Shown here piece by piece: positions 7,901 through 62,100 of a stretch of 64,000 bases of DNA. The DNA is taken from NCBI GenBank assembly GCA_905178155.1, contig CAJINV010000002.1:3787838-3851837 (forward strand), in the 5' to 3' direction. Position numbers and translations under genes: made by a program. Numbering within the stretch: position 1 is the stretch's first letter; every line of letters starts with the position of its first letter. The notes under the pieces were generated by a model. It saw only the letters and a list, made by a program, of their open reading frames with translations, was not told the DNA's origin and searched no databases. Origin of the DNA: Amoebophrya sp. A120 (lineage: Eukaryota > Protista > Dinoflagellata).

Positions 7901-8136
7901 CTAAATTTACTTTTTTTCGTTGAATAAAGAACTCAGGCTAGTACTAGATGACATCTGCAACATGGCGTCGTTATTTTTATTGCCGTTTGTAGCTGCCCGC
8001 CCCGTTTGCGGTCGTGGTCAAAAGCAGCCGCGTTCCACGTCTTCGCGTGGCAATTTCATCCGTGATGAGACCACGGCTGAAGGATTTTATTTACCGGGGG
8101 AGGAGCACAACGTCCGTCCCCAGTAATCCGGGCAAC

Positions 8137-11100
8137 ATGGAAGTCGCCGAGGATAGTTGTACCCACATCCAGCGGGACGAGGGGCCCAGTGCCGACTGGT
8201 GTTGCGAGGCAGGGGCGCAAGAACGAAGCAGGCAGAAGGGTTGTCTTGGAAGAAACACTAACAGGTGGAGCAGGGGGCACGGATCGAAGCAGCGCCGAAG
8301 AAAGATGAACAAGAACCCCATACTGCAACTGCACCTCGCACTGTCGTGCGCAATGAAATCTTACAAGCGCGGCTCTGCGAGGTCGAGAACCAAACACGGA
8401 ACAGCAACAATGAAGACCATGTGCAGCAACTTTAATAAAGAAGCGAGCGAGATGAGAGCAAGACCACGAGCGGCGACGATGAGGCCGCCCGATAAAAGCA
8501 ATTCCTTTTTGCGGCTGGGTAGAAGTTGGCCGGTACAGCTGCGGCTCGTCTGGGAACTGTGCCTGGTGGTGGGGGTGCTCCTCTCCTGCTTCTCGTGCTT
8601 GGTGGTCATCGTCTTTTTGCTCCCTACTTGTTCCCCGCCTCCGTTCGCACTTGCGATGCGCTACATGTCGCTGCAGAACTGCAGCCGCTTTCTGCTCGAC
8701 GAGGATCTCGCCTCTATGGTATCGCAAGAAAATAAAACGAAAATTTGTCATGCGGGCTCCGCAACAAGGGTGGAAAATTTAAATTTTCTCATCCTAAAAT
8801 CCCCTATTCAGCAAAACGACCAGTACTGATCTTTCCACGCTCCACATAACAAGATCTCACTTGAAATTTCTTAGACGATACATGCGTGCGTCCCTGCAGT
8901 ACTTGTTCGAAAAAATCCACCGGTTCCGGCTGGTAAACGATTACTACCTACCGGGCAAACTCGGGATCAACGATCTGTATCGGGAGGGTGCGAGCCAGGG
9001 CGTGATCTTTGCTAACTTTGACGAGTGGCGGTTTCGCCATCTCTTCGACACGAATTTCACGGACGTAAATCTGCTCTTCAACCTGGATCTCCGGTCCCAT
9101 TTCGTCCCGATCCGCAGTCTTCTGACGCAGTTCACGCACACCCGCCCGATCGGGCGATTTGGGAAGGCGGAAAAGGAGGACGCACTGTATCAACTGCAAA
9201 AGTGTCTGGGTCTGGAAGAATGCCAGACTTGTCATGCAGGTTTTCCATAACGCATGAGGTCTACTATGTAGGACATAGCATGACAGATNTGTCTGGGTCT
9301 GGAAGAATGCCAGACTTGTCATGCAGGTTTTCCATAACGCATGAGGTCTACTATGTAGGACATAGCATGACAGATTCTGTGAGAGGTCTACCATCCCTAT
9401 CCTGCATGAGAAACTGCTTCCCGATATGGTCAAAAGTAGACAGCTTTTGGTAATCATGCAACACAGATCTTTACATGATTCAGATTTAGCAAAAAAAAAA
9501 TAAAAAAATTTAGCATGACAAGTTGCTTTGTTCCAGACCCAGATAGTTTTGCATTTGATACACTGAAGAGCTTGACAACGTACGACGCGACGACTGCGAA
9601 CCCGGACCCCTATGCATTGCAAATGTGTCTGGGTCTGGAAGATTGCGAAGGTTCTCATGCTAGTTTGGCATGACTCTGAACTCTGTATTGCGTGGCCACG
9701 AAGACCTCCTCTTGTCTGTCATGCAAAAACGATGTTTCTCATGCGGAATACGCAACACAGAGTCACGAGAAAATGCGTCATGCTTGGCGGTGCATTACAG
9801 TGAGCTTTCTGCTCACTGACATGCATCACAAGTTTCCAGACCCTTTCATATTTGCACTGGATAACCCCGAAACGAATCCAAAACTGTACATGAACAGCTT
9901 CTACCCGGCCGCAACGTCACATTTCGCACACGGGGAGGAGGAGATTCTGTTGCATGCATACGAGAAGAACCACCGAATAAACTTTAAAGTCCGCGTATCC
10001 TGTGTAAAAACGTCCCCGCCCCAGAGTTGTCATGCAGATGCGCAATGACAGGAACATTTGTAATGCGCACCCCCATGATATTATCATATATCATGGGGGT
10101 GGCAGTGCGCACCCCAATGTGATAAGCGTTTCCAGTCGTGTTTTGGCATTTGTAATGCTGTAAACAGGATGAGAAAATGGCTTTCTCATGCGGCTTCCCT
10201 TGCTAACCACCACTACACTGGAGATGGAAACTTGTCATGCACAACTCCCAAGGCCTGGATATTTGTGTTGCAGTTTTGCTAAACTCGACTATGGGGTGGT
10301 GGCGTTTTTACATAGGACACCGCGTAGGCTTCGAACACCACGTGCTCGAGAAGTTGCTGAAAATCGACCGCAGCGGAGTCGTATCCTGTGCAAAACTACC
10401 GTACTAGTATGAATTGCATTACAAATTTTCTCAGCATGAGAATTTTTTTCAAATTTGTAATGCGGGTTTACCTACAGAAATTAATTTGTAATGCGTGACT
10501 GCGATTACTACTAGTACGATACTTTTACAATGCATAGGTCGCCGCGGAATTTTGGCTCCGGCGCCGCGTGCACTGGAACTACCTATCGTAGAAAAAAAAG
10601 CTGTTTCACTCTATTATTAAACTTGTGATGCGTAGAATGGAACGCCGAGGTATTTGTCGTGCTACACACGCAAAAGCAAGACCTGCTTGGATATCCAGCC
10701 GCGTAAGTAGTTTTTCCGCGGCCCTATCGGAAATGCACGCAGAACAAGCTTTCTTCGTCGTGTGTAGCTGCGAACTTATGAAGTTGCAAAACTTGCAAAA
10801 AATTCTTGCAGAGTGAAAGAAGACTCTTTTCCTCCGATACCACCTACTGACGGTCTACTGCGCGCGGAGCCGGGGCCCGTTGTGGAGGAGCGCGCGGTTT
10901 CGAGAACTGCCGGAAATTATCAAATGTAAAAATGTCTGGGTCTGGAAGATTACCAGGTTTGTCATGCACATTTTGCATGACTCCTGATGTCTGTGATGCA
11001 TGCCCTAGCATCACAGATTTTGTGAGGGCTTCTTGATGCCTATACCGCATGACAAATGCTCTCTCCGTGTAGCAAAACTTGGGCTCTCTTTGCTGCCCAT

Positions 11101-14100
11101 GCAATACAGATTTTTTTAGAATCCAAAATCGGCATGACAAGTTGGATTCTTCCAGACCCAGACATTTTTACAGTTGATAGAAATAGGCAAAGACTGGCAG
11201 GAGGAGAAATTTCTTCGCAGTCGCAGGCAGCAAGACTCGGGTATCAAAACGAAAAATCCCTCCTCCCCATATCGAAAACGAAGTTTCTGATGCTGGATTT
11301 GCGTACACAAATCAGATTTGTATTGCTGGCGAGGACTGCAGCCTCACACTAAACCTAAGTAGAGAGGTTTTGGACTAGGCGTCTAGCATGAGGAACGTCC
11401 GTGCTGTAGGCCCATCAGCATCACAAACCGCCTGCACAATGCTGCGGAGCTTGTGGAGTTGCCTCCTTGCAAGACAGATTGGATTCGTGACCTCAAATCA
11501 GCAACGCAAATTTTCGGAGACATACCTTTTCAATATGGGGAGGGGGATTTTCCCTTACGATATCGGGAGCAGCAGCTTCTGGCTCGATAGCGCCAGCATC
11601 TAGTACCTCATCTTCCGCGACGTCTATGCCTGCGGGGCAAGAACAATCTCTGACCGCCGCACAACAAGAAGAAGCGTCTTCTAGTCCTGCCGCAAGTAGA
11701 GCTGGGATGAAGACCGCGGCGTTTGCGCTCCGGTACTACACGCAGAAGAAATTCTATCGCAAGAAAAAAGTGTTACAGTTACACATTGTGTTGCAGACCA
11801 AGCAAGACAGACAAGCTCTGTCATGCCGGATATGCATAGGAGCCTCGTTTCATAGGCGTTTTCCCGTAGGATTTCTGCATTGCAAGTTTTCTATTTCATG
11901 CAGAGAAATTAGTGTTGCTGAATTGACTACAAATGTGTAACTGTAACACTTTTTTCGTGGGATAAATTCAAATCCGAAGTTCTGCAGTCCGACCCAGAGT
12001 GCCTCTACTCGTTCCAACTAGGGTGCCTGCCGAAGTTATGCATTGCAAAAGTAATCTAAATATCTCGCTCTGGATCAGTTGTGATGCGGAAGTTGCGGGA
12101 CGTAGAGATGATCTGTATTGCCAGTCTGAAGGGGATAATTGGCCTTTTTGTCCTGCGAGAAGGCGGTTTGTCATTCTGGATACAAATGAACGCGCAATAA
12201 GATCCGAAAAACTTTTGTGGTGCGTTCCTCCCGTGCAAAAGCCTGCCTGGTCATGCAAGTTGTGGCTCAGCATGACCACTTTCATCCAGGCACAGGGACG
12301 TTGAAATTTGCAAAATGCATAGAAGTTCCAAGACGCTGACTTTTTGACCGGGGTAACGGAGGCAAAGCTGGAAGCGCGGGAAAAGCGGCAAGCGATGACG
12401 GTGTGGGCGCCCGAGTATCTATCGTATTCGTAAAAATGCATAAGTATCGTATTCGTAAAAATGCATTACAAATTTTCTCAGCATGAGAAAGAAAATTTGT
12501 AATGCGGATTTCACCTTAACAAAAAAATTTGTAATGCGTGGCTGCAATTACTACGTATGACTACGATACTTTTGTACAGGGCGCACCNNNNNNNNNNNNN
12601 NNNNNNNNNNNNNNNNNNNNNNNNNNNNNNNNNNNNNNNNNNNNNNNNNNNNNNNNNNNNNNNNNNNNNNNNNNNNNNNNNNNNNNNNNNNNNNNNNNNN
12701 NNNNNNNNNNNNNNNNNNNNNNNNNNNNNNNNNNNNNNNNNNNNNNNNNNNNNNNNNNNNNNNNNNNNNNNNNNNNNNNNNNNNNNNNNNNNNNNNNNNN
12801 NNNNNNNNNNNNNNNNNNNNNNNNNNNNNNNNNNNNNNNNNNNNNNNNNNNNNNNNNNNNNNNNNNNNNNNNNNNNNNNNNNNNNNNNNNNNNNNNNNNN
12901 NNNNNNNNNNNNNNNNNNNNNNNNNNNNNNNNNNNNNNNNNNNNNNNNNNNNNNNNNNNNNNNNNNNNNNNNNNNNNNNNNNNNNNNNNNNNNNNNNNNN
13001 NNNNNNNNNNNNNNNNNNNNNNNNNNNNNNNNNNNNNNNNNNNNNNNNNNNNNNNNNNNNNNNNNNNNNNNNNNNNNNNNNNNNNNNNNNNNNNNNNNNN
13101 NNNNNNNNNNNNNNNNNNNNNNNNNNNNNNNNNNNNNNNNNNNNNNNNNNNNNNNNNNNNNNNNNNNNNNNNNNNNNNNNNNNNNNNNNNNNNNNNNNNN
13201 NNNNNNNNNNNNNNNNNNNNNNNNNNNNNNNNNNNNNNNNNNNNNNNNNNNNNNNNNNNNNNNNNNNNNNNNNNNNNNNNNNNNNNNNNNNNNNNNNNNN
13301 NNNNNNNNNNNNNNNNNNNNNNNNNNNNNNNNNNNNNNNNNNNNNGGGCTCCGCAACAAGGGTGGAAAATTTAAATTTTCTCATCCTAAAATCCCCTATT
13401 CAGCAAAACGACCAGTACTGATCTTTCCACGCTCCACATAACAAGATCTCACTTGAAATTTCTTAGACGATACATGCGTGCGTCCCTGCAGTACTTGTTC
13501 GAAAAAATCCACCGGTTCCGGCTGGTAAACGATTACTACCTACCGGGCAAACTCGGGATCAACGATCTGTATCGGGAGGGTGCGAGCCAGGGCGTGATCT
13601 TTGCTAACTTTGACGAGTGGCGGTTTCGCCATCTCTTCGACACGAATTTCACGGACGTAAATCTGCTCTTCAACCTGGATCTCCGGTCCCATTTCGTCCC
13701 GATCCGCAGTCTTCTGACGCAGTTCACGCACACCCGCCCGATCGGGCGATTTGGGAAGGCGGAAAAGGAGGACGCACTGTATCAACTGCAAAAGTGTCTG
13801 GGTCTGGAAGAATGCCAGACTTGTCATGCAGGTTTTCCATAACGCATGAGGTCTACTATGTAGGACATAGCATGACAGATTCTGTGAGAGGTCTACCATC
13901 CCTATCCTGCATGAGAAACTGCTTCCCGATATGGTCAAAAGTAGACAGCTTTTGGTAATCATGCAACACAGATCTTTACATGATTCAGATTTAGCAAAAA
14001 AAAAATAAAAAAATTTAGCATGACAAGTTGCTTTGTTCCAGACCCAGATAGTTTTGCATTTGATACACTGAAGAGCTTGACAACGTACGACGCGACGACT

Positions 14101-17100
14101 GCGAACCCGGACCCCTATGCATTGCAAATGTGTCTGGGTCTGGAAGATTGCGAAGGTTCTCATGCTAGTTTGGCATGACTCTGAACTCTGTATTGCGTGG
14201 CCACGAAGACCTCCTCTTGTCTGTCATGCAAAAACGATGTTTCTCATGCGGAATACGCAACACAGAGTCACGAGAAAATGCGTCATGCTTGGCGGTGCAT
14301 TACAGTGAGCTTTCTGCTCACTGACATGCATCACAAGTTTCCAGACCCTTTCATATTTGCACTGGATAACCCCGAAACGAATCCAAAACTGTACATGAAC
14401 AGCTTCTACCCGGCCGCAACGTCACATTTCGCACACGGGGAGGAGGAGATTCTGTTGCATGCATACGAGAAGAACCACCGAATAAACTTTAAAGTCCGCG
14501 TATCCTGTGTAAAAACGTCCCCGCCCCAGAGTTGTCATGCAGATGCGCAATGACAGGAACATTTGTAATGCGCACCCCCATGATATTATCATATATCATG
14601 GGGGTGGCAGTGCGCACCCCAATGTGATAAGCGTTTCCAGTCGTGTTTTGGCATTTGTAATGCTGTAAACAGGATGAGAAAATGGCTTTCTCATGCGGCT
14701 TCCCTTGCTAACCACCACTACACTGGAGATGGAAACTTGTCATGCACAACTCCCAAGGCCTGGATATTTGTGTTGCAGTTTTGCTAAACTCGACTATGGG
14801 GTGGTGGCGTTTTTACATAGGACACCGCGTAGGCTTCGAACACCACGTGCTCGAGAAGTTGCTGAAAATCGACCGCAGCGGAGTCGTATCCTGTGCAAAA
14901 CTACCGTACTAGTATGAATTGCATTACAAATTTTCTCAGCATGAGAATTTTTTTCAAATTTGTAATGCGGGTTTACCTACAGAAATTAATTTGTAATGCG
15001 TGACTGCGATTACTACTAGTACGATACTTTTACAATGCATAGGTCGCCGCGGAATTTTGGCTCCGGCGCCGCGTGCACTGGAACTACCTATCGTAGAAAA
15101 AAAAGCTGTTTCACTCTATTATTAAACTTGTGATGCGTAGAATGGAACGCCGAGGTATTTGTCGTGCTACACACGCAAAAGCAAGACCTGCTTGGATATC
15201 CAGCCGCGTAAGTAGTTTTTCCGCGGCCCTATCGGAAATGCACGCAGAACAAGCTTTCTTCGTCGTGTGTAGCTGCGAACTTATGAAGTTGCAAAACTTG
15301 CAAAAAATTCTTGCAGAGTGAAAGAAGACTCTTTTCCTCCGATACCACCTACTGACGGTCTACTGCGCGCGGAGCCGGGGCCCGTTGTGGAGGAGCGCGC
15401 GGTTTCGAGAACTGCCGGAAATTATCAAATGTAAAAATGTCTGGGTCTGGAAGATTACCAGGTTTGTCATGCACATTTTGCATGACTCCTGATGTCTGTG
15501 ATGCATGCCCTAGCATCACAGATTTTGTGAGGGCTTCTTGATGCCTATACCGCATGACAAATGCTCTCTCCGTGTAGCAAAACTTGGGCTCTCTTTGCTG
15601 CCCATGCAATACAGATTTTTTTAGAATCCAAAATCGGCATGACAAGTTGGATTCTTCCAGACCCAGACATTTTTACAGTTGATAGAAATAGGCAAAGACT
15701 GGCAGGAGGAGAAATTTCTTCGCAGTCGCAGGCAGCAAGACTCGGGTATCAAAACGAAAAATCCCTCCTCCCCATATCGAAAACGAAGTTTCTGATGCTG
15801 GATTTGCGTACACAAATCAGATTTGTATTGCTGGCGAGGACTGCAGCCTCACACTAAACCTAAGTAGAGAGGTTTTGGACTAGGCGTCTAGCATGAGGAA
15901 CGTCCGTGCTGTAGGCCCATCAGCATCACAAACCGCCTGCACAATGCTGCGGAGCTTGTGGAGTTGCCTCCTTGCAAGACAGATTGGATTCGTGACCTCA
16001 AATCAGCAACGCAAATTTTCGGAGACATACCTTTTCAATATGGGGAGGGGGATTTTCCCTTACGATATCGGGAGCAGCAGCTTCTGGCTCGATAGCGCCA
16101 GCATCTAGTACCTCATCTTCCGCGACGTCTATGCCTGCGGGGCAAGAACAATCTCTGACCGCCGCACAACAAGAAGAAGCGTCTTCTAGTCCTGCCGCAA
16201 GTAGAGCTGGGATGAAGACCGCGGCGTTTGCGCTCCGGTACTACACGCAGAAGAAATTCTATCGCAAGAAAAAAGTGTTACAGTTACACATTGTGTTGCA
16301 GACCAAGCAAGACAGACAAGCTCTGTCATGCCGGATATGCATAGGAGCCTCGTTTCATAGGCGTTTTCCCGTAGGATTTCTGCATTGCAAGTTTTCTATT
16401 TCATGCAGAGAAATTAGTGTTGCTGAATTGACTACAAATGTGTAACTGTAACACTTTTTTCGTGGGATAAATTCAAATCCGAAGTTCTGCAGTCCGACCC
16501 AGAGTGCCTCTACTCGTTCCAACTAGGGTGCCTGCCGAAGTTATGCATTGCAAAAGTAATCTAAATATCTCGCTCTGGATCAGTTGTGATGCGGAAGTTG
16601 CGGGACGTAGAGATGATCTGTATTGCCAGTCTGAAGGGGATAATTGGCCTTTTTGTCCTGCGAGAAGGCGGTTTGTCATTCTGGATACAAATGAACGCGC
16701 AATAAGATCCGAAAAACTTTTGTGGTGCGTTCCTCCCGTGCAAAAGCCTGCCTGGTCATGCAAGTTGTGGCTCAGCATGACCACTTTCATCCAGGCACAG
16801 GGACGTTGAAATTTGCAAAATGCATAGAAGTTCCAAGACGCTGACTTTTTGACCGGGGTAACGGAGGCAAAGCTGGAAGCGCGGGAAAAGCGGCAAGCGA
16901 TGACGGTGTGGGCGCCCGAGTATCTATCGTATTCGTAAAAATGCATAAGTATCGTATTCGTAAAAATGCATTACAAATTTTCTCAGCATGAGAAAGAAAA
17001 TTTGTAATGCGGATTTCACCTTAACAAAAAAATTTGTAATGCGTGGCTGCAATTACTACGTATGACTACGATACTTTTGTACAGGGCGCACCGACCGGGG

Positions 17101-20100
17101 TCACGGGATCGACGGATCTATGCTGAGTAAAAACGTCCCCAGCCCAGAGTTGTCATGCAAATATGCAATGACAGGAACACTTTCAATGCGCAGCTCCATG
17201 AGAGGTATTTGCAATCGTGTTTTGGAATTTGTAATGCTGCAAGCAGGATGAGAAAATGGCTTTCTGATGCGGCTTCCCTTGCCAACCGGCACTACACTGC
17301 AGAGGGAAACTTGTCATGCACAGCTCCCAAAACATGGAGACTTGTGTTGCTAGATTTCCAACTTGACTATGGGATGGGGACGCTTTTGCTTAGGATAGGA
17401 TCGGTATGTGTCCGTGACGCCACCCATGACGGCGGACGAGATTTTGCAGTCCTGGGCCACGCAGACGACGGACTCGGAGCTCAACAGCAGGGAAAAGCAG
17501 ATCCAAGATCGAAATCAGGTGTTCCTGCACGACCTCCGCGCAATTGACCGGCACGAGACCCGCCGCGTCACCGATCTGCTGACGCACCCCGACATCACCC
17601 CGGGTTTCGTGCAGTACATGAACTACATGGTGCGAAAACCTCCGGCGCACCACTGGAAACCGCGGGCGAATTTGCTGACCGGCGTCGATTATGAACTGCA
17701 AAAGTATGATCGTACTCGTAGTAATCGCCGGCATGCATTACAAACAAGGTCCGAGCACGGGGACAGAGTCCCCGTGCAGCGACCTTCCGGCATTTGTCTG
17801 CGCGGTGGCACTGGGCAGACTGGTCGCTCGCAGCTAGGTATCCCGGTGCGCCTTGCATTCAATGACCCGCGACGGGCCTGCGGACACAGCTCCCTTGCTT
17901 GCGCGCACTAGCTTCATTAGCCTGCCGCGCGCAAAGATAAAAAGAAAAGAAGAAACGGGCACCGGGTCTGGAGCCGGCCCCCAGGTCATGGCGCGGCGAC
18001 AGAGTCCCCACATTGCCCTAGGGTTTTTCTTTGCCCCTTCCTTGGCCGCGCGGTGTGGTTCCCGGGGCGTGTTCGTAGCTAGCCCCTAGGCCATGCCGCG
18101 GGGACCGAGTCCCCGCGCTGGCCTAGGGTTTCCGCCCCTTGGCCGCGCGGTGTCCGGGAAGCGCTTACAGCTGGCCCCTAGGCTATGACGCGGGGACCGA
18201 GTCCCCGCGCTGGCCTAGGGCTTTCGCTCCTTGCTTGACCGCGCCGCGTCCGGGAAGCGCTCGCTGCCGGCCCGTAGGCCATGACGCAGGGACCGAGTCC
18301 CCGCGCTGGCCTAGGGCTTTCGCCCCTTGACCGCACGCGGCCCGGGAAACGCTCACAGCTGGCCCCTAGGCCATGACGCGGGGACCGAGTCCCCGCGCTG
18401 GCCTAGGGCTTTCGCCCCTTCCTTGGCCGCACGGTTCTCGGGAGGCGCATACAGCTGGCCCCTAGGCCATGACGCGGGGACCGAGCCCCCGCGCTGGCCT
18501 AGGGCTTGCGCCCCTTGGCCGCACGGTGTCCGGGAGACGCCCGCCCAGAGCTGGCCCCTAGGCCATGGCGCGGAGACCGAGCCCCCGCGCTGGCCTAGGG
18601 CTTTCGCCCCTTGGGCGCACGGTGTCCGGGAAGCGCCTGCAGCTGGCCCCTAGGCCATGGCGCGGGGACCGAGTCCCCGCGCTGGCCTAGGGCTTTCACC
18701 CCTTTGCCGCACGGTGTCCGGGGACGGAGCGCTTACAGCTGGCCCCTAGGCCATGACGCGGGGACCGAGTCCCCGCGCTGGCCTAGGGCTTTCACCCCTT
18801 TGCCACACGATGTCCGGGGACGGAGCGCTCACAGCTGGCCCCTAGGCCATGACGCGGGGACCGAGTCCCCGCGCTGGCCTAGGGCTTTCGCCCCTTGGCC
18901 GCACGGTGTCCGGGAAGCGCCTAGTTACAGCTGGCCCCTCGGCCATGACGCGGGGACCGAGTCCCCGCGCTGGCCTAGGGCTTTCGCCCCTTCCTTGGCC
19001 GCACGGTGCCCGGGAAGCGCTTCCAGCTGGCCCCTAGGCCATGACGCGGGGACCGAGTCCCCGCGCTGGCCTAGGGCTTTCGCCCCTTGGCCGCACGGTG
19101 CGGGAAGCGCTTGCAGCTGGCCCCTAGGCCATGACGCGGGGACCGAGTCCCCGCGCTGGCCTGGGGCTTTCGCCCCTTTCTTGGCCGCGCGGTGTCCGGG
19201 GAGGGAGCGCGCAAAGCTGGCCCTTAGGCCATGACGCGCGCTGGCCTAGGGCTTCCGCCCCTTGGCCGCACGGTGGCCGGGAACGAAGCGCCCAAAGCTG
19301 GCCCCTAGGCCATGGCGCGGAGACCGAGTCCCCGCGCTGGCCTAGGGCTTTCGCCCCTTGGCCGCACGGTGCCCGGGATCGGTGGAGGCGCTCACAGCTG
19401 GCCCCTAGGCCATGACGCGGGGACCGAGTCCCCGCGCTGGCCTAGGGCTTTCGCCCCTTGGCCTTGGCCGCACGTTGTCCGGGAGCGAAGCGCTCGCAGC
19501 TGGCCCCTAGGTCATGGCGCGGGGACATAGTCCCCGCGCTGACCTAGGGCTTTCGCTCGTCCCTTGGCCGCACGGTCTCGCGTGACAGACTGGGCTTCGG
19601 GTCCAAACCCCACATGACAATCAAAGTCCGAAAGCTTGGCCGGGGTGTGTCCGGAAGTCTGCCCGGGGTGTGTCCGACCGAAAGTCTGCCCGGGGTGTGT
19701 CCGAAAGTCTGCCCGGGGTGTGTCTGGGGTGTGTCTGGGGTATGTTCGGACTTTTTGCCTGGGGTGTGTTCGGGGGTCTGTCTGGGGTATGTCTGGGGTG
19801 TGTCTGGGGTATGTTTATACCCCACCTTCTGCTTTTTCGCCAAAAATTTGTACTCGGGTCGTGATTGACTTCCATTTGCATACCCCTGACACACCCCGGA
19901 ACATACCCCCGAGCATACCCCTCGCATGCATTTTTGACCAGCTGCTGCAGTTTAGATAGTAATCTCCATCCTAAGGTCAAACAGCATGACAAATTCCATT
20001 GGTCATGCTGAGCTAATTTGTATTGCAATTACTACTAGTCGTGCGGTACTTTTGCAATTCATATCGACCACCCGGTGGTGATCCAGGCCCTGCACAATAT

Positions 20101-24944: not shown

Positions 24945-25779
24945 TTTTTGTAAGGGGGATTTGTATAGTATTTGATATTCGGTAGTTGCTCTCTGTTGAA
25001 GAGGCTGTTTTACAGAGCTAAGGGAAGTTTTTCGAAAAAATTGGAATTGATCATGGAGGTGCAGGTGTGGTATGTCACTGCTAAGCACAAGCTTTTTCTA
25101 CATAGATAGATCGTGACGAGACGGGGCGGTCACGCACTTTTGATGCGGATAATTGAATAGATGATTTGAGTACTACCACCTTCATGGATTGACATTGACA
25201 AGCGCGACATGTTGAAGCAGTTCTTTCTCTCAACTGTGAGTGTGCGCTGTGAAAGCTCACTTTTCGTTTACTGCAAGCAGGAACAGGAAGCCGCCCCAGG
25301 AGGACTTCGTTTGGCAGACCTGTGTTTGATAATGACGGGTAGGGTGGTTCTGCGGAATTTGTAGGCCGCTCAGGGTTTTACTTTTTCCTCGCGCTGATCG
25401 CGCCAAAATGCTTTCTCCGCTGGTCCGCGAGCGACTTTCATAGAGAGTGGAGAAAACTCCGACTCAAATGTCAGTGGAGGCGTCGTGACACAGCAGCTGT
25501 GCTGTTGAGAGCGCAGGAGATGCGGGTGCTAAAGGGGTGCTTTTTGACCGAAAGCGGTTCTTGTCTGAGTCGCTTTTCTTTGCAGCAGATGAAAAGGGGA
25601 TGACCGCATGGTGAAAAATTTTGTGCAGCGCCACTCAGGCGGATTTTTGCAGTTACTATACTGGAGCTGCTGCTGCTCTACGTGGTGTTTCCTTCGGAGG
25701 TGCTCTATGGCTGATTCCGATCTTGTTGTGCTGCTCGAATTATTCGAGTACGAGTTGATTTCACTACACTAGGGCGTGT

Positions 25780-34211: not shown

Positions 34212-34842
34212 GGTGCCCGAAGGACAAGAGACTGGAGGTGCGGAAACAGAGAAAAAAACAGACGCGGAGCCACTTCAGGAGACGCAAGATAGTGCAGCGA
34301 CTACCTCGTAGAACAATGGTGCCAGGAGCATAATTCAATAAAGCACGAATGCGTCGTGGTCATTATTTGGAAATCCGAGCTGGTTCATTTTGTTGTTACT
34401 TCATCTCTACTTAGGCCCCACGACGAGGCGGCATTGATGCTGCTACAGCAGGAATCGAAAGGGCCGAGATTTTGGCCGGGGCGCTCATCAAATATAACAA
34501 GTGGCACCACCCCCACGCGTTCTTTGTTGTGGTCCGCTTGGCAACATCCGTGCACAGGCCGCTCCTTCGGGATGATCCGTTTTTTTTCTTGATAGTAGAG
34601 AGAAGCTCGCTGTAGAGGTTTCCTCCTCCCCCTGTACGCAAGTAGAGGAGGGGCGGGAGAAATTCTAGTCAACACCGTAACTTCCTTCCACCTCCAAGTC
34701 GTTTGCGTAGAACAGCCTTCAGCTCACTTTTACTGAAGTAAGACCTCCACAGCGCACCAGTGCAGATTCGATTTCTGTAACTACGTATTCTAACTCAGCA
34801 GTACACTACTTGCTGCTCTCCGCTTTTATTCTTTGCAAAAAA

Positions 34843-50143: not shown

Positions 50144-53100
50144 GAGGTACTGAAAGAGGACTTATCAAATGCAAAAGTGTCTGGGTCTGGAAGATTCTAA
50201 ACTTGTGATGCTGTCCGTGGAAGATTCCAAAACACTTTGTATTGCATGACCCGCAATAGGGGCCGGGCTGGTAGTCCCACTTAAGGACGAGGGCATCTCT
50301 CATGCGGTAGAGATTATATCACAAAGCTTTCTAAAAATCTCTGATGCTGCGGCATGCATCACAGACATCATGGCTCATGTTATTTAAGATATGCATGACC
50401 ATAAATCTAGAACTCTTCCAGACCCAGACATTTTTGCATGTGATAGGACTGCTTGGCAAACTATTTGACTGGCGCGTGCATTCTGTACAGCAAATGCGAG
50501 CCTAAAAGGTTGGACAGGCAATACAAACCCGAGTTTTTCGAAACCGTGCCCGGACTGGTTTGTGACGACGGCAGCTGCGTGTTCAACGATGCGACACCAA
50601 TCGCACTTCTCCTCACCTCCTACGTGCGGTTCGGCCGTCCCGGTGGCGTGCCCGAAATGGAGCCCCCGCAAGACTGCACGGGGTCATGGAGTGTAGCAGC
50701 TTCGGACGCGGAGTTGGAGCAACAGTGCACCGGCACGGGAGAGACCCTCACGCGCAAGTACACGCAGACCCAAGCCGCGGCAAACGGCGGTGCCCCCTGC
50801 GAGGCCGCAGACGGAGCTGAGAGCAGTTTGAAGTATCAAATGCAAAAATGTCTGGGTCTGGAAGAATGCAAGTTTGTCATGCTTGTCTGGCATGACTCGA
50901 GAATCTGTGTTGCATAGGCGCGATACGGCCCTCTTACCTGTCATGCAAAAACGCAGTTTGCCATGCGGAATACGTAAGACATGGCACCCAAAAAATTTGC
51001 CATGCATAGCTGCGTATTGTAGTGCGTCTCTCATTCACTTTTGGCATTACACCCAGACATGTTTGCAATCCATATTGAGTGTCCTTGTGATAAAGCCGGA
51101 TACCATGATATGCAAGAAAAAAACTGTGTAACTCTGTAATGCAGACGCAGAGCATGCAACAGAGTTACACCTGTCATGCCAGACAAGCGTGAAGTCCTCT
51201 TTTCATGTGTGTTTTCCCTCACATGTAGAGCCACGCATGACAGGTTTTCTCTGTCATGTAGAGCAAACTTGTGATGCTGTCAGCCAAAGAAAGTTACACG
51301 AGCACAATTTTTGTCTTGGATACACGAGGACACCGCTGCAGGCACTTGCACGCAGAATGTCTGCACTATGGAAGCGTCAGGTGCGGAATCGACAAAGTTG
51401 CAGCATTTTTTTGTCACGCATAAAGACGATGATGCCACCAGTTTGGCCCCCAATTTCTAAGCGGCGCATCACAAATGTTGGCAACACCTAAATGTAGTTT
51501 GCCGCGCTGTTTGGTGGGCAAAGAAGACTGTCTCTGTCATGCTACTTGAGCAGCTCTAGTATCTCTAGCCCCAAACAGTCCTCTTTACGCATTACGACTT
51601 ACTGCTCTGTCGATTTGTTCAAACCTGACACCCTCATATTGAAATGTGAGCACGGCGAGGAGGCGACTGGCACCGCTTGCACCTCGCGTGATGCGGTGAT
51701 CTGCACTGCTTGCACTACGGCCGGCTATCACAAAAGCGGGAACAACTGCGTGCAGAACGACTGCACTTGCCCGCACGGCAATGAGGCGACGGGGGCGGCC
51801 TGCACCTCGCATAATACGGAGATTTGCCACGATTGCGATGCTGGATACCACCTAGACGCTGCAAACTGCGTCGTGAATACCTGCAAATGCGAGCACGGAA
51901 CAGCATTAACGGGGCCACCGACGTGCGTAAACGACGATGTGACGGTTGGCTGTCAGCAAGGCACTTGCAACTCGGGGTATCACTTCGAAGACGATGGCTC
52001 AGCCAAAAACTGCGTCGTGAATACCTGCAAATGCGAGCACGGAACGCCGTTAACCGGGCCGCCGACGTGCGTCGACCATCAGACGACGGCTGGCTGTCAG
52101 CAAGGCACTTGCAACTCGGGGCATCACTTCGAAGACGATGGCTCAGCCAAAAACTGCGTCGTGAATACCTGCAAATGCGAGCACGGAACGCCGTTAACCG
52201 GGCCGCCGACGTGCGTCGACCATCAGACGACGGCTGGCTGTCAGCAAGGCACTTGCAACTCGGGGCATCACTTCGAAGACGATGGCTCAGCCAAAAACTG
52301 CGTCGTGAATACCTGCAAATGCGAGCACGGAACGCCGTTAACCGGGCCGCCGACGTGCGTCGACCATCAGACGACGGCTGGCTGTCAGCAAGGCACTTGC
52401 AACTCGGGGCATCACTTCGAAGACGATGGCTCAACCAAAAACTGCGTCGTGAATACCTGCAAATGCGAGCACGGAACGCCGTTAACCGGGCCGCCGACGT
52501 GCGTCGACCATCAGACGACGGCTGGCTGTCAGCAAGGCACTTGCAACTCGGGGCATCACTTCGAAGACGATGGCTCAACCAAAAACTGCGTCGTGAATAC
52601 CTGCAAATGCGAGCACGGAACGCCGTTAACCGGGCCGCCGACGTGCGTCGACCATCAGACGACGGTTGGCTGTCAGCAAGGCACTTGCAACTCGGGGCAT
52701 CACTTCGAAGACGATGGCTCAACCAAAAACTGCGTCGTGAATACCTGCAAATGCGAGCACGGAACGCCGTTAACCGGGCCGCCGACGTGCGTCGACCATC
52801 AGACGACGGTTGGCTGTCAGCAAGGCACTTGCAACTCGGGGCATCACTTCGAAGACGATGGCTCAACCAAAAACTGCGTCGTGAATACCTGCAAATGCGA
52901 GCACGGAACGCCGTTAACCGGGCCGCCGACGTGCGTCGACCATCAGACGACGGTTGGCTGTCAGCAAGGCACTTGCAACTCGGGGCATCACTTCGAAGAC
53001 GATGGCTCAACCAAAAACTGCGTCGTGAATACCTGCAAATGCGAGCACGGAACGCCGTTAACCGGGCCGCCGACGTGCGTCGACCATCAGACGACGGTTG

Positions 53101-56100
53101 GCTGTCAGCAAGGCACTTGCAACTCGGGGCATCACTTCGAAGACGATGGCTCAACCAAAAACTGCGTCGTGAATACCTGCAAATGCGAGCACGGAACGCC
53201 GTTAACCGGGCCGCCGACGTGCGTCGACCATCAGACGACGGTTGGCTGTCAGCAAGGCACTTGCAACTCGGGGCATCACTTCGAAGACGATGGCTCAACC
53301 AAAAACTGCGTCGTGAATACCTGCAAATGCGAGCACGGAACGCCGTTAACCGGGCCGCCGACGTGCGTCGACCATCAGACGACGGTTGGCTGTCAGCAAG
53401 GCACTTGCAACTCGGGGCATCACTTCGAAGACGATGGCTCAACCAAAAACTGCGTCGTGAATACCTGCAAATGCGAGCACGGAACGCCGTTAACCGGGCC
53501 GCCGACGTGCGTCGACCATCAGACGACGGTTGGCTGTCAGCAAGGCACTTGCAACTCGGGGCATCACTTCGAAGACGATGGCTCAACCAAAAACTGCGTC
53601 GTGAATACCTGCAAATGCGAGCACGGAACGCCGTTAACCGGGCCGCCGACGTGCGTCGACCATCAGACGACGGTTGGCTGTCAGCAAGGCACTTGCAACT
53701 CGGGGCATCACTTCGAAGACGATGGCTCAACCAAAAACTGCGTCGTGAATACCTGCAAATGCGAGCACGGAACGCCGTTAACCGGGCCGCCGACGTGCGT
53801 CGACCATCAGACGACGGTTGGCTGTCAGCAAGGCACTTGCAACTCGGGGCATCACTTCGAAGACGATGGCTCAACCAAAAACTGCGTCGTGAATACCTGC
53901 AAATGCGAGCACGGAACGCCGTTAACCGGGCCGCCGACGTGCGTCGACCATCAGACGACGGTTGGCTGTCAGCAAGGCACTTGCAACTCGGGGCATCACT
54001 TCGAAGACGATGGCTCAACCAAAAACTGCGTCGTGAATACCTGCAAATGCGAGCACGGAACGCCTTTAACCAGGCCGCCGACGTGCGTAAGCGACGGTGT
54101 GACGATTGGGTGTCAGCAAGACAGTTGCAATTCTGGGCATCACTACCAGGACGATGGCTCAACCAAAAATTGTGTGCTGAATCTCGCGAACCCAGTGTTA
54201 CCGCGCGGGTTTGGTATGCATTGCAAATCTAGTATCGTACTACCTAGTAGTAATCATTGCGTTACAAATTTCATATTTGTCAACTTGTTGGTGAAAAGTG
54301 GACTACGTGTAAAAATGCTGATTTTTTATTCCCTGCACATTTCTGTCATGCGAAGATATTGCAACTACTACGAAATGAAACTACGCAGGCGATAGTACTT
54401 TTGCACAGGATGTTCGACCTCCATCTGCAGCTGGCGGACGGTGTCACGGACGTGGCTGCGGCTTTGCAGACCTTGAAAACGGCTGTGAAAGTATCCTGTG
54501 TAAAAACGTCCCCACCCGAGAGTTGTCATGCAAATCTGCATGCTGAAAATGTTTCTCATGCGGAGCCCCATGAGAAGCATTTTCCAGTCATGTTTTGGGA
54601 TTTGTCATGCTCCAATCAGCATGATATACTAGATCTGTGATGCTGCTGAGCTAGCTCAAACAGCACTACGATACGAGTCCACATTTGTCATGCAAAACAG
54701 CCGAAGCTTGTGGATCTTGACTATGGGGCGGGGACGTTTTTACATAGGATAGAAAGCTACGGTCGGCGAGTTTTTCCAACAAACCGCGGGCATCGCGTTG
54801 ACACCGGAACAAATCTATCAAATGCAAAAATGTCTGGGTCGTCTGGAAGAGTATACACTTGTCATGCGGGTTTTCCATGACCCATGTGGTCTGGAATGCG
54901 GGACCTAGCATGACAGACTCTGTGAGGTCTTTGCCATGTGTGTCCTGCATGAGAAAGAACTTCGTCCCAACTGGGTTGACAGTGGACAGCTTTTGGTAAT
55001 CATGCAACACAAGTTTTCGCAGGATTCGGACTCAGCATGACAAGTTCCAACCTTCCAGACCCAGACATATTTGCAGTTCATAAAATCGAAAATGTCGAAA
55101 TCACGTTAAAAGACCCGAACGCAGTGTGTGTCCCGCTCAAATGGTACAGTCTCAAACGTTACAACAGAATAAATGGAAATGATCTGTGATGCAAGAAGTG
55201 CTGGATCTAGCCAAGCCTACGCCCACAGGGAGATTGCGCATGACAAGTGTAGTTTGAGTCCCAAGCCGCGCTAGAACCTGGCGAAATTCGTAATGTAGAG
55301 AGTGGAACGCTCTGCGATTCTATCATGCTCGTCATGCAACACAAGTTCCAGATGCTATTGTAACGCTTGAGGTTGTAATACCTGAGTAGGTTATACGGTG
55401 CCGCCGAATGTTGAAGTCGAAATAACCTTCGGCGTGCGCGTGGACAGCTCCGATGTGGATGAAATCAATGCCGTATGCATAGCAAATATCCATCTGGGTG
55501 TGGATTTGTGATGCGAGAGGTGAAGGACAGCAAGATCTGTAATGCCTGAGTACGATTGTTACCAATTTTGAATATGTCGTACAGGAAGGCAGTTTGTCAT
55601 GCGTTCTACGCTTAATTCTGCAACAAGCCTCGCGCAACTTCTGATGCTGTTATGCCGTGTAAGTGGCTACTCTGCGACGTGAGTATCAGCAACACAATAA
55701 ATTTTTCCCAGACGTCCACGGATATTTGCAGTTGATATGCCGCGTGGGCTCCCGATGCGGAGTTGTCCCCGACCGGGACTGAGGTGCAAGCGTTAAATTC
55801 GGCAGTAAAGAAAGCGGTCAATGAGGACCCGGCTATGAGTAACCAAATGACAGTCCCCGACACGAATGCAGTGCCAGGAACGGTCATCGTTACAACAACG
55901 ACAACCACGACGACCACGCCAACGCTTCTCCCAAGGGGCTTCGACCTGAAATTAGATCTCCCAGCCGGTGCTGACGTCGCGACTGCGCTGAGTGACCCTG
56001 TGTTGAGAAGCAGTGTGGCGGCCGGTCTGGTCGAATATCTAAACGCGAAACAGGTCGGGGTGACGCTGACAGCTGATCAGATTGCGAATTTGCAAATCAC

Positions 56101-59100
56101 GGAAAAGGAGGGACTCCTGGGTCAATTCGAAGTTCATTTTGATGTTGAGATTGATCCGGCGCATGTATGAAGTGCAAAAGCTTATCGTACAAGTCGGATT
56201 TGACAAGTTCTTCAGTGTTGTGTGACAGCACGATCTTTGTTTTTTCACCTGAAAATTCGCATGGCAATTTCCATTCCCGCATTTGAAAAAATGTGTTACT
56301 ACGGAAAATACTTCCTTACTTTTGCAATGCACATTAGTACTTCCTTACTTTTACTTTTTTACGGTGATGCTTTTGCAATGCACATTAGGCTGGACAAATC
56401 GATTTCGCCTGGGATCCTCATGCGGCTTTGACCGAAGCCGCGATGCAGAATTTAGGAGCAGAGCTGCGGACTGCCGTTAGCAACAATGCGGCTAACATGA
56501 GTATGAGTATATCAGTTCCCGATACTGACGCAGTGCCAGGAACGGTCATCGTTACAACAACCACAACCACGACGACCACGCCGACACTGCTACCCAGGGG
56601 CTTCGACCTGAAACTGCAACTTCCAGACGGTACTGACGTTGCGACTGCGCTTCGTGATCCTGCACTGAAAAGCAGCCTGGTGGCCGGGTTGGTTGAATTT
56701 TTGAACGGGCAGCCGGGTGGGGTAACGCTGACAGCTGACCAGATCGAGAATTTGCAAATCAGGGAGAAGGAGAATGCCCAGGGGCAATATGAAGTGCTTT
56801 TTGATATTGAAGTCGACCCTGCGGATGTATGCAGAGTGAAAGTTTTTTATCGTGCTGGGGCGAGAAGTTCTGCAATGTCGCATGACAAGTTTTTGCTTTC
56901 TATGTCTGAATCTGCATGAGAAACAAGGTCATGGCGCGGGGACAGAGTCCCCGCGCTGCGACCTTGCGGCGAAGAAGGGCCACCCGCGGCGGCTTTTCTT
57001 GCCCATGATGCGGCAGGTTTTTTTTTTGCGACAGAACGGGGTAGCTTGGCGCTCGTGGTGCCGGCGCCCCCCCTGGAAAAATGCGCCTTTTTCTGCGCCC
57101 CTGGGCGGGGCGCCCCCCCCAAAGGACTACCCACGACCAACCGAGGGCGCGGCCGTCCGGGAGGTTGTTTTCCCGAACCAGGGCGCGCGGGCCTGTTTCT
57201 GCGCCCCTGGGCGGGGCGCCCCCCCCAAAGGACTACCCCCGACCATGCGAGGGGGGGCGCGGCCACCTTCCTGGAGCCTGTTCTCCGAACCAGGGCGCAC
57301 AGACCTGTTTCTGCGCCCCTTGGCGGGGCCCCCCCAGCAGGACTACCCACGACCAAGTGAGGGGGGGGCGCGGCCTTCCTGGGGGCTGTTAGTTCGCTTC
57401 GCACTCCCGAATCAGGCCGCGCGGACCTGTTTCTGCGCCCCTGGGCGGGGCGCCCCCCCCCCAATGAATAGGCAGCCAATCTTTGGCCCCCGGGGTCGGG
57501 CCTGACTCTTGAAAAGCGGCCCCCGGGGTCGGGTGTTCCTTTTCCGAAGTCAGGTGGGGAGCATGTTTTGAGTTGTGCAGGAGGTTTTTGCCGATTCGGG
57601 TCGTGTTGGATACCCCCGAACAGGGGTCGGAACATACCCCGGAACACACCCCAGAACACACCCCGAAACACACCCCAGACCATGCCCCGAAAGCCACTTT
57701 CCGACAGTCAGGTCCGGGGTCGGGCCAGACTCTCGAAAAGTGACCTCCGGGGCCGGGTGTCACTTTTGCCGAGTCAGGTGTGGGGTATGTTTTGGGGGGT
57801 GCGTGAGGAAATGGCCGAGTTAGGTCGTGTTTGATACCCCGGAACAGGGGTCGGAACATACCCCGGAACACCCCCCGAAAACTCATTTTTGGGCAGTTGC
57901 TGCAGTTTAAATAGTAATTTCATTTTTACTTCTGCAAAAATTTTCAATCGCAGTACTAATTTCTAGTGCGATAGTACATCTTTTGCAAATGCATACCCTG
58001 CTGAAAAAGTCGACTACGCCTGGCATCCCGATGTGGCTTTAACTGCAGACGAGATGGAGACTTTGGGAACAAAGCTCCAGACGGCCGTTAGCGCAAATGC
58101 GGCCAACATGACCACGCAAGTAACTGTACCTGATCCCGCCGATGCTGTAACAGGAACGGTCCTCGTTACAACGACCACCACAACCACTACCACACCAACA
58201 CTGCTACCCAGGGGCTTTGACTTGAAATTGAACCTTCCAGCAGGTGTCAACAACGTTGCGAAAGCGCTGGAAGATCCCGTGCTACGAAGCAGCGTGGTTG
58301 CGGGTGTATTGGAATTTTTAAACGGGCAGCCGGGTGGGGTAACGCTGACAGCTGATCAGATCGCGAATTTGCAAATCAGGGAAAAGCCGGGGGTGTCGGG
58401 GGAGTTTGAAGTGCTTTTTGATATTGAAGTGGACCCTGCGGATCTATGCAGAGTGAAAGTTTTGTCGTGCTGGGGCGAGAGGTTCTGCAGTGTCGCATGA
58501 CAGATCTGGTTTTTATGTGTGAATCTGCATGACAAATTTCCAATTTTTGCTTCTGCAAAAATTTTCAATCGCAGTACTAATTTCTAGTGCGATACGACTT
58601 TTGCAAATGCATACCCTGCTGAAAAAGTCGACTACGCGTGGCATCCCGATGTGGCTTTAACCGCAGACGAGATGGAGACTTTGGGAACAAAGCTCCAGAC
58701 GGCCGTTAGCGCAAATGCGGCCAACATGACCACCCAGGTAACAGTACCTGATCCCGCCGATGCTGTAACAGGAACGGTCCTCGTTACAACGACCACCACA
58801 ACCACTACCACTCCGACACTGCTACCCAGGGGCTTCGACTTGAAGTTGAACCTTCCAGCAGGTGTCAACAACGTTGCGAAAGCGCTGGAAGATCCCGTGC
58901 TGAGGAGCAGTGTGGTTGCGGGTGTATTGGAATTTCTAAATGGGCAGCCGGGTGGTGTAACGCTGACAGCTGATCAGATCGAGAATTTGCAAATCAGGGA
59001 AAAGCCGGGGGTGTCGGGGGAGTTTGAAGTGCTTTTTGATATTGAAGTGGACCCTGCGGATCTATGCATTGCAAAAGTTTATTTATCGTGCTCAGGCGAG

Positions 59101-62100
59101 TAGAGGTTCTGCAGTGTCGCATGACAGATCTGATTTTTATGTGTGAATCTGCATGACAAATTCCCAATTTTTGCTTCTGCAAAAATTTTCACACGCAGTA
59201 CTAATTTCTAGTGCGATACGACTTTTGCAAATGCATACCCTGCTGAAAAAGTCGACTACGCGTGGCATCCCGATGTGGCTTTAACTGCAGACGAGATGGA
59301 GACTTTGGGAACAAAGCTCCAGACGGCCGTTAGCGCAAATGCGGCCAACATGACCACGCAAGTAACTGTACCTGATCCCGCCGATGCTGTAACAGGAACG
59401 CTTATTGTCACAACGACCACGTCCACAACCACCACGCCAACACTTCTACCGAGGGGCTTCGATCTGAGCTTGAATTTGGATCTCCCAGGGGACGGCAGCA
59501 CTGATGTCGCGACTGCGCTGAGTGATATCAAATGCAAATATGTCTGGGTCTGGAAGATTCTGAGACTTGTCATGCGCGTTTTGCATAAGACACGATGTCT
59601 GTGATGCATGCCCCAGCGCCACGGACTTTCTGAGGGCTTCTTGATGCCTATTCCGCATCACAAATTATGCCCTCTCAGCGTAGCAAAAATTGCATTCGCT
59701 TTGCTGCTCATGCGATACAGACTTTTTTGGAGTCCAAATGTAGCATCACAAGTTGCATTTTTCCAGACCCAGACATATGTGCAATTCATAAGTGACCCCG
59801 CACTACGAAGCAGCGTGGTTATATGGAACTGTCAGGATCGAAATTGACAAAATCGAAAAACTTGTGATGCATAAAATGCATGACGCGAAATACGTGTGTT
59901 GCAGAACAGGCAAGTGAGGCCGATTGTGAGCCTGTTTGAGGTTATAGCTCGAGCTGCTAGAGCAGCATGAGAGAATCAGTCTTCTTTGCCTAAACAGCAT
60001 TACAAACTGGATTTAGGCACCACCAGAATTTGTGATGCGCCACTTAGAAACTGGGTTCGAACTGGAATCCATCTTATGCATGACAAATCCTTTCGATTTT
60101 GTCAATTTCGATTCTGACACTTCCATAGGTTGCCGGTCTTGTGAAGTTTTTGAACGACCAGCCGGGAATGGGTGGCGTCACCCTGACCGCTGACCAGATC
60201 GTGAATTTACAAATCCGGCAAAAGGAGGGGGGAGAATCGGGGCAATTCGAAGTGCATTTTGATGTCGAAATTGATCCGGCGCATGTATGCAGTGCAAAAG
60301 CTTTTTTTTACTACAACTCGGATGTTGACGAGTTCTGCGCTGTTGCATGTAGACGCGATCTACCTTGCTTTCTTACTGGAAAAATCTGCATGATTTTATT
60401 CTGTTCTTGTTCCGTAAAACTAAAAACAACTTTGCAAATTGCACTTTAAGTGCAACTCTCATCAACTCGTGAGAAAGCCCGTGATGTGAAAGAAGTGCTT
60501 TTGGACCACTGCACACCATGCTGATTCAATCAACTCCGCCTGGGATCCCGCCTCGGACTTGCCAGAAACCGCGATGCAAAATTTGGGAGAAAAGCTGCAA
60601 ACGGCCGTTAGCGACAATGCGGCTAATATGAGCACTAACATCACGGTGCCCAGCACAGCTGTAGGCGGAACGGTCTATGCATTGCAAAAGTATCGTACTC
60701 GTGTAAATGCATTGCAAATTTCCTCAGCGTGAGAAATAAAATTTGTAATGCGGATTTCGATTTACCTTAGGAAAAAGATTTGTAATGCAAGTCTTTATAC
60801 GAATGCGATACTTTTGCACAGGATACGGTCATCGTGACAACGACGACCACTACCACCACCACACCAACACTGCTACCAAGGGGCTTTGACTTAACACTGC
60901 AGGTGCCAGCGGACTCCTCCGACGCCGAGATCGACGATGCGCTGCGAACATTGCCGCTACGCGACGCGATAAGGACGGCAGTGGTGCAGTTTTTTGTATG
61001 AAAGAGGCCAGTGAAAAGAGTGACTCGATCTGCTGGTGACAAGGCCCTTCTTGTGCAAAGAGGTTGTTTAAATTTGCCACGCAGCTTCAAGTTCAATCAT
61101 CTGTATAAAGAAAAATTGCCTCGACGAAGAAGATTCATGAAAAGTCAATGAATAGTCTTTTTGCAGTTGATGTTTTATTCGTCCAAGCTTAGGTTGTAGA
61201 GGACCTCCATGCAGTAGATCGATACATTTTTTTAGAAAATGCATAGTCTGAAAATAAATTGAACGACGTGACTCTGACGGAGGAGGAGATAGAAAATTTG
61301 CAAATCACCAAAAAGCTCGACGCCAGCACCCCTCCCACGGTGGAGGTGGAAGTGACTTTTGCGGTCCGCATTGACCCCGCGCATGCGAGTGCAGTAAACG
61401 AGGCTTGGGATCCGGACGCTGTTTTGGGGGGCGAGGCGCTGGAAACGTTAGTCGAGGCAGTGAGAACCGCGTTTAATGCCATGGAGGAGGATCCTATTAC
61501 CGGTCCTAGTATAATCACGCTGCCCGATATGGAAGCGTCAGAATCGAGATTCGCAAAATCGAAAAACTTGTGATGCACAAAACCGATGCCAGTTGGGGCC
61601 TCAGTTTGCAAGCGGCGCAAGACAAATTGCGGGAGCACCCAAATCCAGTCTGTGATGCTGTTTGGACAAAGAAGAGTGCTCCTGTCATGCTACTCTGGCA
61701 GCACATTGCATACCCCTAAACAGGCTTGAAGTCGGTCTCTCTTGCCTGCTCCCCAATACAGGCCTGCAGTGCCCTACATTTTGCGCATCACAAATTTTTC
61801 GATTTTGTTGATTTCGATCCTGACAGATCCATACCCGAGGCAGGTGCTGGTACAACAGTGGTACAGCCAGTGATTGTGACCACGACCACAATATGCCTTG
61901 CAAATACGTCTAGGTCTGGAAGTATGCAACTTGTGATGCTGCATTTGGATTCTACAAAAATCTGTATTGCATGAAAAGCAAAAGAGGTCCAGTTTTTGCC
62001 ACGGCGAGAGGGCATTTCTGATGCGGTATAAGCATCAGGAAGCCCTCACAAAATCTGTGATGCTAGGGCCTGCATCACAGACATCAGGAGTCATGCAAAA

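Follow-up and report, generated by a model that had tools for sequence, protein, structure and literature searches.

The 64,000-nucleotide stretch of Amoebophrya sp. A120 analysed here (contig CAJINV010000002.1, positions 3,787,838 to 3,851,837 of the forward strand; the window, numbered from its first base) contains 78 introner elements, mostly 145-375 nucleotides (nt) long. They are TAT...ATA inverted-repeat inserts with 5-base-pair (bp) target duplications, and they appear to insert like miniature inverted-repeat transposable elements. One fixed register, in which the intron begins 1 nt ahead of TAT and finishes 4 nt beyond ATA, fits every testable junction, and we hold it with high confidence. 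Three single-exon queries each returned one public protein (P0001, P0002 and P0003), 100% identical and all from Amoebophrya sp. A120. The host genes are:

8065..24944, forward strand: host gene of P0003 (1392 amino acids, FkbM methyltransferase domain), carrying 22 curated element introns and, in addition, the intron 16920-17077
25850..34400, forward strand: membrane-anchored Cys/Thr-rich host gene (approximate bounds); carries 14 element introns plus a candidate GT-AG intron
43600..64000, forward strand: host gene or genes of a long repeat protein (public pieces P0002 and P0001), with an N gap inside, an approximate start and an extent that exceeds the window
760..5000, reverse strand: cNMP-binding-domain gene, bounds approximate, with 7 elements; excision of element plus five nt opens 821 codons

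The element list came from a scan for TAT...ATA inverted repeats that was then curated by hand. Twelve duplicated elements at 13347-17073 and element 48288, which runs into an N gap, were left out of the counts, and element 36912, which has no assigned strand, was left out of the oriented counts. Among the 77 oriented elements, 73 begin with TAT and 69 end with ATA. Directly outside the elements lies a 5-bp direct repeat, perfect in 46/78 of the final list and with at least 4/5 matches in 66/78. In a first list of 73 elements, which included two misbounded ones (16921 and 60998), mean identity at 5 bp was 0.86 with 45 perfect copies, whereas lengths of 3, 4, 6, 7 and 8 bp gave the chance level (0.25-0.28, at most one perfect copy). 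Paralogous copies near 38650 and 39915 are empty sites in which the element is absent and the 5-mer single, so the direct repeat is a target duplication. The paralogous gene copies 34640-37400 and 38480-40000, with and without elements (34884, 36912), form such empty-site pairs; 36912 itself seems to lie outside any coding frame. Excision of element plus five nt opens frames of 821, 489, 717, 947, 443 and 2306 codons. The elements form families, with ends common to several of them in the window and 262 relatives in another assembly. A block of about 3.6 kilobases (kb) with 12 elements at 9000-12568 recurs at 13347-17073 with an N gap between; it is probably an assembly duplication, since P0003 holds the block once.

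A first-pass annotation of the window had proposed that mismatched repeats place the splice junction between positions 4 and 5 of the duplication (4|5). The intron would then read N-TAT...ATA-NNNN, with one base from the upstream copy and four from the downstream copy. RNA contigs from four runs (X1-X4; a single sample, presumed RNA, depth 3-34, rare variants dropped) contain 33-42% of the sequence words of 20500-30400. They were aligned to 19950-35300, where the position-4 mismatches lie, with a second alignment on 29270-31518. X1 and X2 are spliced over 19950-35300, whereas the DNA-type run X5 is unbroken across an element. Junctions in the longer alignment were taken from contig piece ends and record offsets, and offsets of 122, 216 and 83 letters all agree with excision of element plus five nt. 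A raw RNA run with the same species label (X9) yielded only 2 aligned reads. The junctions read in RNA include the following, all on the forward strand, with the upstream and downstream repeat copies separated by a slash:

20681..21004, forward: intron, GAAGG/CAAGG; position 1 upstream (inferred from the piece start); stem extendable by 1 pair
22125..22455, forward: intron, GCGAG/GCAAA, with ends GT..AA; Asn of DVGAN from position 3 of the upstream and position 5 of the downstream copy
22881..23038, forward: intron, TATTC/CATTC; position 1 upstream
24142..24414, forward: intron, perfect repeat; stem extendable by 1 pair; element plus five lost in RNA
29331..29480, forward: intron, CCAAG/ACAAG; joint 29327>29478; position 1 upstream
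29611..29881, forward: intron, AGATC/AGACC; joint 29610>29882 in 4/4 runs; position 4 upstream; ends CT..AC
29944..30259, forward: intron with 3' end ATG, ACGGT/TCGGT; joint 29940>30257
30300..30613, forward: intron, perfect repeat; stem extendable by 2 pairs; skip of 314 = element plus five
30655..30887, forward: intron, GTTGG/GATGG; joint 30652>30886; position 2 upstream
31209..31472, forward: intron, CGAGG/CGAAG; joint 31208>31473 in 4/4 runs; position 4 upstream; ends GT..AA; stem extendable by 1 pair

Element plus five nt is missing from the RNA contigs at 17 junctions, and an 18th (20682) shows its downstream side only. The position-4 mismatches at 29612 and 31210 are both synonymous and can thus be decided by RNA only; at each, position 4 came from the upstream copy in 4/4 runs. 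At 22126 the downstream RNA piece begins at 22455 with no alternative letters, and the RNA gives the predicted Asn of DVGAN; the Ser that would have spoken against the proposal did not appear. Reading spliced RNA at mismatched repeats, the check put forward with the proposal, thus gave eight informative junctions, all compatible with 4|5. Their intersection is 4|5 alone, the sole cut of six that fits 8/8 (P=0.012 under uniform choice among the six). Elements 29945-30255 and 30301-30609, neighbours from the same family, point in opposite directions and make up a 665-bp inverted repeat with a 40-nt exon between them; each is spliced separately in 4/4 runs.

Public proteins provide a second set of junctions. 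According to the genome paper's text, BLAT alignments of transcripts underlie the A120 gene models, because the splice sites are non-canonical (PMC7789003), so the A120 proteins carry junction information. Ten further informative junctions were read in this way, and 10/10 allow 4|5 (P=0.0005). The junctions 58445 and 59063 were left out of this count as they lie in a collapsed repeat. Junctions read from proteins or predicted from sister motifs are:

8719..8884, forward: intron, element 8720-8880, TATGG/CATGC; protein allows cuts 0-4
10583..10843, forward: intron, CTACC/CCACC; protein allows cuts 2-5
16920..17077, forward: intron without duplication, CCGAG/CTTTT; G+TAT...ATA+CTTT; the only tested cut that gives P0003
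45381..45646, forward: intron, TGCCC/TGGCC; protein allows cuts 3-5
47584..47886, forward: intron, TACAC/TTCAA; protein allows cuts 2-4
47909..48266, forward: intron with 5' end TAG, TACTT/CACGT; protein allows cuts 4-5
51366..51642, forward: predicted intron, TGCAC/TTGAA; Cys needs a cut at 3 or later
54214..54416, forward: predicted intron with 3' end ATG, TTTGG/TTCGA; PRGFDL needs a cut at 4 or earlier
56165..56388, forward: intron with 3' end ACA, GCATG/TTAGG; protein compatible with cuts 4-5; a stop arises with cuts 0-1
56827..57999, forward: intron with nested insertion, GGATG/CCCTG; protein allows cuts 3-5
58444..58617, forward: predicted intron, GGATC/CCCTG; sister repeats favour cuts 3-4
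59062..59241, forward: predicted intron, sister copy of 58444-58617
59821..60131, forward: intron, GGTTA/GGTTG; protein VVAG; cuts 0-4
60996..61249, forward: intron, TTTTG/GTCTG; protein allows cuts 3-5

Position 4 comes from the upstream copy at 47910 and 56166, and position 5 from the downstream copy at 8720, 47585 and 59822. Across RNA and proteins, 4|5 is permitted at 18/18 informative junctions and another cut is required at none. At the element 16921-17073, which has no duplication, 16919|17078 is the sole frame-keeping cut tested that yields P0003. The duplication is thus not needed, on the strength of one case taken from annotation. This element looks damaged, its 5' arm shortened and its 3' site placed after an inner ATA, and the old terminus appears to have been converted to exon.

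The first-pass annotation had argued for 4|5 from five mismatched repeats (22126, 51367, 54215, 58445 and 59822), all of which are present with the letters listed above. Its span, 8715..61250, runs from the first repeat base of element 8720-8880 to the last repeat base of element 60997-61245. The five examples do place the cut between positions 3 and 5, but the two copies share the same letter at position 4 in 5/5, so they cannot by themselves prove 4|5. The Ala of VVAG at 59822 agrees with the public protein. At 51367 (CKCEHG) the Cys requires a cut at position 3 or later; repeats of both the CKCEHG and the CTCPHG type occur in that protein, which makes the case weak evidence on position 5. 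The Asp at 54215, an element whose 3' end is ATG and not ATA, rests on the sister motif PRGFDL; the argument at 58445 rests on sister repeats, and that repeat is collapsed in the public protein.

Further observations concern the long repeat protein. Introns at 56166, 56828, 58445, 59063 and 60286 occupy the same position in five copies of a repeat of about 200 amino acids, while a further copy at about 61370 lacks an intron there. The duplications at these five introns have decayed to 1-4/5 matches, and P0001 lacks about 300 residues of these repeats. At 51980-54100, about 17 near-identical 120-bp exonic repeats (a Cys-rich unit of 40 amino acids) form an array free of elements. Four long elements of 1.0-2.4 kb carry nested insertions or satellite-like arrays (17690-20063, 27441-28455, 46261-47216 and 56828-57995). 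At three of the four, P0003, P0002 and P0001 fit excision of element plus five nt, so the ends function across long loops. The 83-nt candidate GT-AG intron at 26798-26880 shares its gene with 14 element introns, and an RNA piece end at 26795 fits it.

It is conceivable that 4|5 is merely the commonest cut and that a minority of introns or molecules are cut elsewhere inside the duplication, which we consider improbable. The text of the genome paper calls the splice sites variable (PMC7789003), contigs conceal minor forms, and the 46/78 perfect repeats are uninformative. Yet none of the 18 informative junctions demands another cut, and in 29270-31518, where 7/7 elements are skipped as element plus five, no other joint or letter occurs at the 7 junctions in four runs. 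Moreover, a perfect repeat offers an aligner six equal placements, which by itself could produce a spread of 1-5 nt.

A collection scan recovered 139 loci (L001-L139) of a second assembly, whose elements belong to the same families at about 75% identity. These carry 262 elements, and the 5-bp repeat is perfect in 192/240 with intact ends. Elements with fewer than 3/5 repeat matches (17/262) were left out, and 33/245 could not be oriented, leaving 212 oriented elements. Neighbouring elements agree in strand assignment 78 to 5. A coding-model test of which copy is exonic lent the register no support there, favouring the upstream copy in 13/34 mismatches at positions 1-4 and the downstream copy in 4/4 at position 5; it recovers the known copy in only 11/18 window cases and is treated as uninformative. 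Position-4 mismatches are scarce in the window (5 versus 9-13), but this scarcity does not recur in the second assembly (10, 10, 8, 8 and 5 at the five positions) and was discarded. Across the window and L001-L139, junctions fall in phase 0 in 133/287, above chance (P=1.5e-5), which may reflect a target preference. From their motifs, the gene at L014 is presumably an SNF2 helicase, that at L112 a protein kinase and that at L133 a temptin-like protein.

The boundary bases are free, as the first-pass annotation had held. Intron base +1 is A16/C22/G30/T9 of 77 in the window and A51/C52/G61/T48 of 212 in the second assembly. Ends of the form GT..AG occur at the fitted register in 2/77 and 7/212, and at any register in at most 2/72, so that the GT (GC)...AG ends of U2-type introns are not characteristic here. 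The U2-type U+2 and purine +3 are found: +2 is T in 77/77 and 211/212, and +3 is A in 76/77 and 212/212. Position -7 is A in 77/77 and 212/212 oriented elements. Variant ends are one-sided in the letters that they change. The 12 in the window change +4 (3), -5 (4), -6 (4, two being sister copies) or +3 (1) and never +2 or -7; the 12 in the second assembly change +4 (4), -5 (4), -6 (3) or +2 (1; L083, strand doubtful). In each set, 11/12 changes fall at +4, -5 or -6 (P=0.006 each); the split was derived from the window first, and the second assembly is its replication (1 versus 11, P=0.006). Positions +2, +3 and -7 are thus protected in both assemblies. Among the three variants that were not automatically oriented, L112 and L077 fit the asymmetry, while L125 may not.

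These terminal letters bear on what sets the ruler. A ruler set by structure only, starting at the final pair of the stem with the letters irrelevant, would have in its favour that stems form in most elements (mean pairing probability of the terminal pairs 0.60-0.68, 73 elements) and that the 3' site of 16920-17077 lies 4 nt past an inner ATA that can pair with the shortened 5' arm. Bases +1 and -4 pair a little less often than bases in exons (55/289 versus 0.227), a difference that is not significant (P=0.14). However, four introns whose stems can be extended outward by one pair (20682, 24143, 31210) or two pairs (30301) are removed from RNA without any shift, with one side visible at 20682. 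Extra outer pairs leave the cut unmoved, so the zero point is the TAT/ATA sequence and not the end of the helix. Terminal mismatches are tolerated one-sidedly (C+4:A-7 and A+3:C-6), whereas a U+4:G-7 wobble is absent among oriented elements; pairing alone is therefore insufficient to explain the asymmetry. The minimum-energy fold of the 16920 case has its first 9 bases single-stranded. A purely structural ruler is largely refuted, and we give it very little credence. The first-pass claim of a fixed ruler measured from the stem of the terminal inverted repeat thus stands as regards the fixed register, but the measurement starts from the TAT/ATA letters.

We favour removal by a U1-less spliceosome guided by the element hairpin, to which we assign a probability of roughly one half. 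The hairpin would join both ends, standing in for U1 and U2AF. The 5' site would be read as N|N-U-A, with U+2 and A+3 retained and G+1 dispensed with. As branch adenosine we predict the A that opens the terminal ATA (intron -7), its invariance being a hint only, and the 3' site would be placed by its distance from A-7 instead of by AG. Spliceosomes read U+2, A+3 and the branch A, and short fixed 3' structures occur in intron-poor lineages. This reading is favoured because the protected +2 and +3 are 5'-site positions, A-7 suits a branch point and the A120 spliceosome is nearly complete. In the text of the genome paper, 83/89 spliceosomal proteins and U2, U4, U5 and U6 are present, and U1 was not found (PMC7789003). 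Its Table S4 gives N-T donors in all nine top non-canonical classes, as the rule predicts (PMC7789003).

The same 1+4 register could instead be cut by a separate, non-spliceosomal endonuclease-ligase that binds at the base of the TAT/ATA stem, a mechanism suspected for the nonconventional introns of Euglena; we regard this as a serious but less probable explanation. Both boundary dinucleotides are free, and both orientations are used equally (78 versus 72 by an internal motif, with 62 ties). The protected +2, +3 and -7 could equally be protein contacts. Yet these are the bases at which a spliceosome reads U+2, A+3 and the branch A, and no candidate nuclease turned up, although no search for one was made. 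In Euglena, spacers of 3 and 5-6 nt separate the described sites from a paired CAG/CTG motif (PMC12501133), and nonconventional introns are reported to be released as circles (PMC11282704), both of which suit an endonuclease-ligase. The near-complete A120 spliceosome described in PMC7789003 speaks against it.

Several points weigh against a hairpin-guided spliceosome or the register on which it builds. G+1, AG at -2/-1 and G+5 matter in the standard splicing reaction, and none of them is preferred among the 77 window and 212 second-assembly elements. The bases around A-7 are a poor match to the U2 pairing consensus as judged by eye, and they lie inside the stem. No lariat or branch point was seen, and the branch at -7 is a prediction from the letters. 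The variant ends of L083 and L125, both ambiguous in strand, may break the asymmetry. Each RNA junction, taken singly, leaves at least one neighbouring cut open, 4|5 being an intersection; only the annotation-based case at 16920 pins it alone, in a region that adjoins the assembly duplication. Finally, X1-X4 are contigs of one presumed RNA sample from which rare variants are lost, and they may lack independence from the RNA on which the annotation was built.

As a tentative extension of the hairpin-guided spliceosome, we propose that transposon termini supply a second code for splicing, N|N-UAU...AUA-NNNN|N. A U1-less spliceosome would read U+2, A+3 and a hairpin-presented branch A-7 and count bases to both sites without G+1 or AG, so that any insertion, whatever its target or orientation, would be an exact intron from birth. 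The fixed register itself already suggests that, since the intron takes one base of the upstream copy and four of the downstream copy and both ends read TAT, insertion in either orientation should restore the coding sequence.

How tens of thousands of A120 introns are removed without a consensus is posed as an open question in the genome paper (PMC7789003). One positional rule would substitute for the published 'unprecedented variability' of A120 splice sites and permit exact re-annotation of the introns. It singles out three bases (+2, +3 and -7), with -7 as the place to look for a lariat, and would account for how elements could spread through genes harmlessly.

The elements themselves are already known. 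Farhat et al. 2021 described A120 introners from the same organism (100% protein identity), and the text of that paper reports TAT-starting inverted repeats, direct repeats of 3-5 nt (5 bp in the legend of Fig. S19), a hairpin and no GT-AG, with variable splice sites, an unknown border and no cognate transposase (PMC7789003). The window elements share the TAT-starting inverted repeat, a direct repeat within 3-5 nt, removal from RNA and repeated families. Unlike in that text, we find one register, a uniform 5-bp duplication wholly outside the inverted repeat, and protected +2, +3 and -7. A fixed register is not stated in the open texts searched, a scope that stops short of subscription papers and of Fig. 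3 and Figs S19-S23 of PMC7789003; in the parts covered, PMC12130899, PMC11282704, PMC11453091 and PMC12005148 repeat the 'variable' view or are silent on register. The fixed register and the three protected bases thus appear to be new to print.

As far as the sources consulted describe them, other systems share parts of this arrangement. The terminal-inverted-repeat introners of Polarella and Aureococcus are likewise similar to miniature inverted-repeat elements, with a target duplication resolved by a consistent splice position, but they carry or recruit G[TCA] and AG, neither of which A120 ends need (bioRxiv 2020.10.14.339549). The non-GT/AG introns of Fritillaria borealis are also transposon-derived with non-canonical ends, and an adapted spliceosome is suspected; Fritillaria keeps U1 and prefers AG-AC/AG-AT ends, whereas in A120 no U1 was detected and +1, -2 and -1 are unconstrained (PMC11282704; PMC13326754). 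Diplonemid introns offer a further analogue. The nearest working analogue is the spacer code of Euglena nonconventional introns (5'-N3CDG...CH'GN5-6|R; PMC12501133), which has fixed spacers from a paired motif, a longer 3' spacer and free dinucleotides. Fixed spacers from a paired terminal motif hold here at 18/18 informative junctions, while the Euglena motif and spacers (N3-CDG...CH'G-N5-6) are replaced by N1-TAT...ATA-N4. The A120 spacers are 1 and 4 rather than 3 and 5-6, the motif is TAT/ATA rather than CAG/CTG, the lineage is unrelated, and the first base of the next exon has no purine preference (A or G in 49/77 and 109/212; compare PMC12501133). This parallel between unrelated lineages suggests that splicing by hairpin plus ruler arose more than once.

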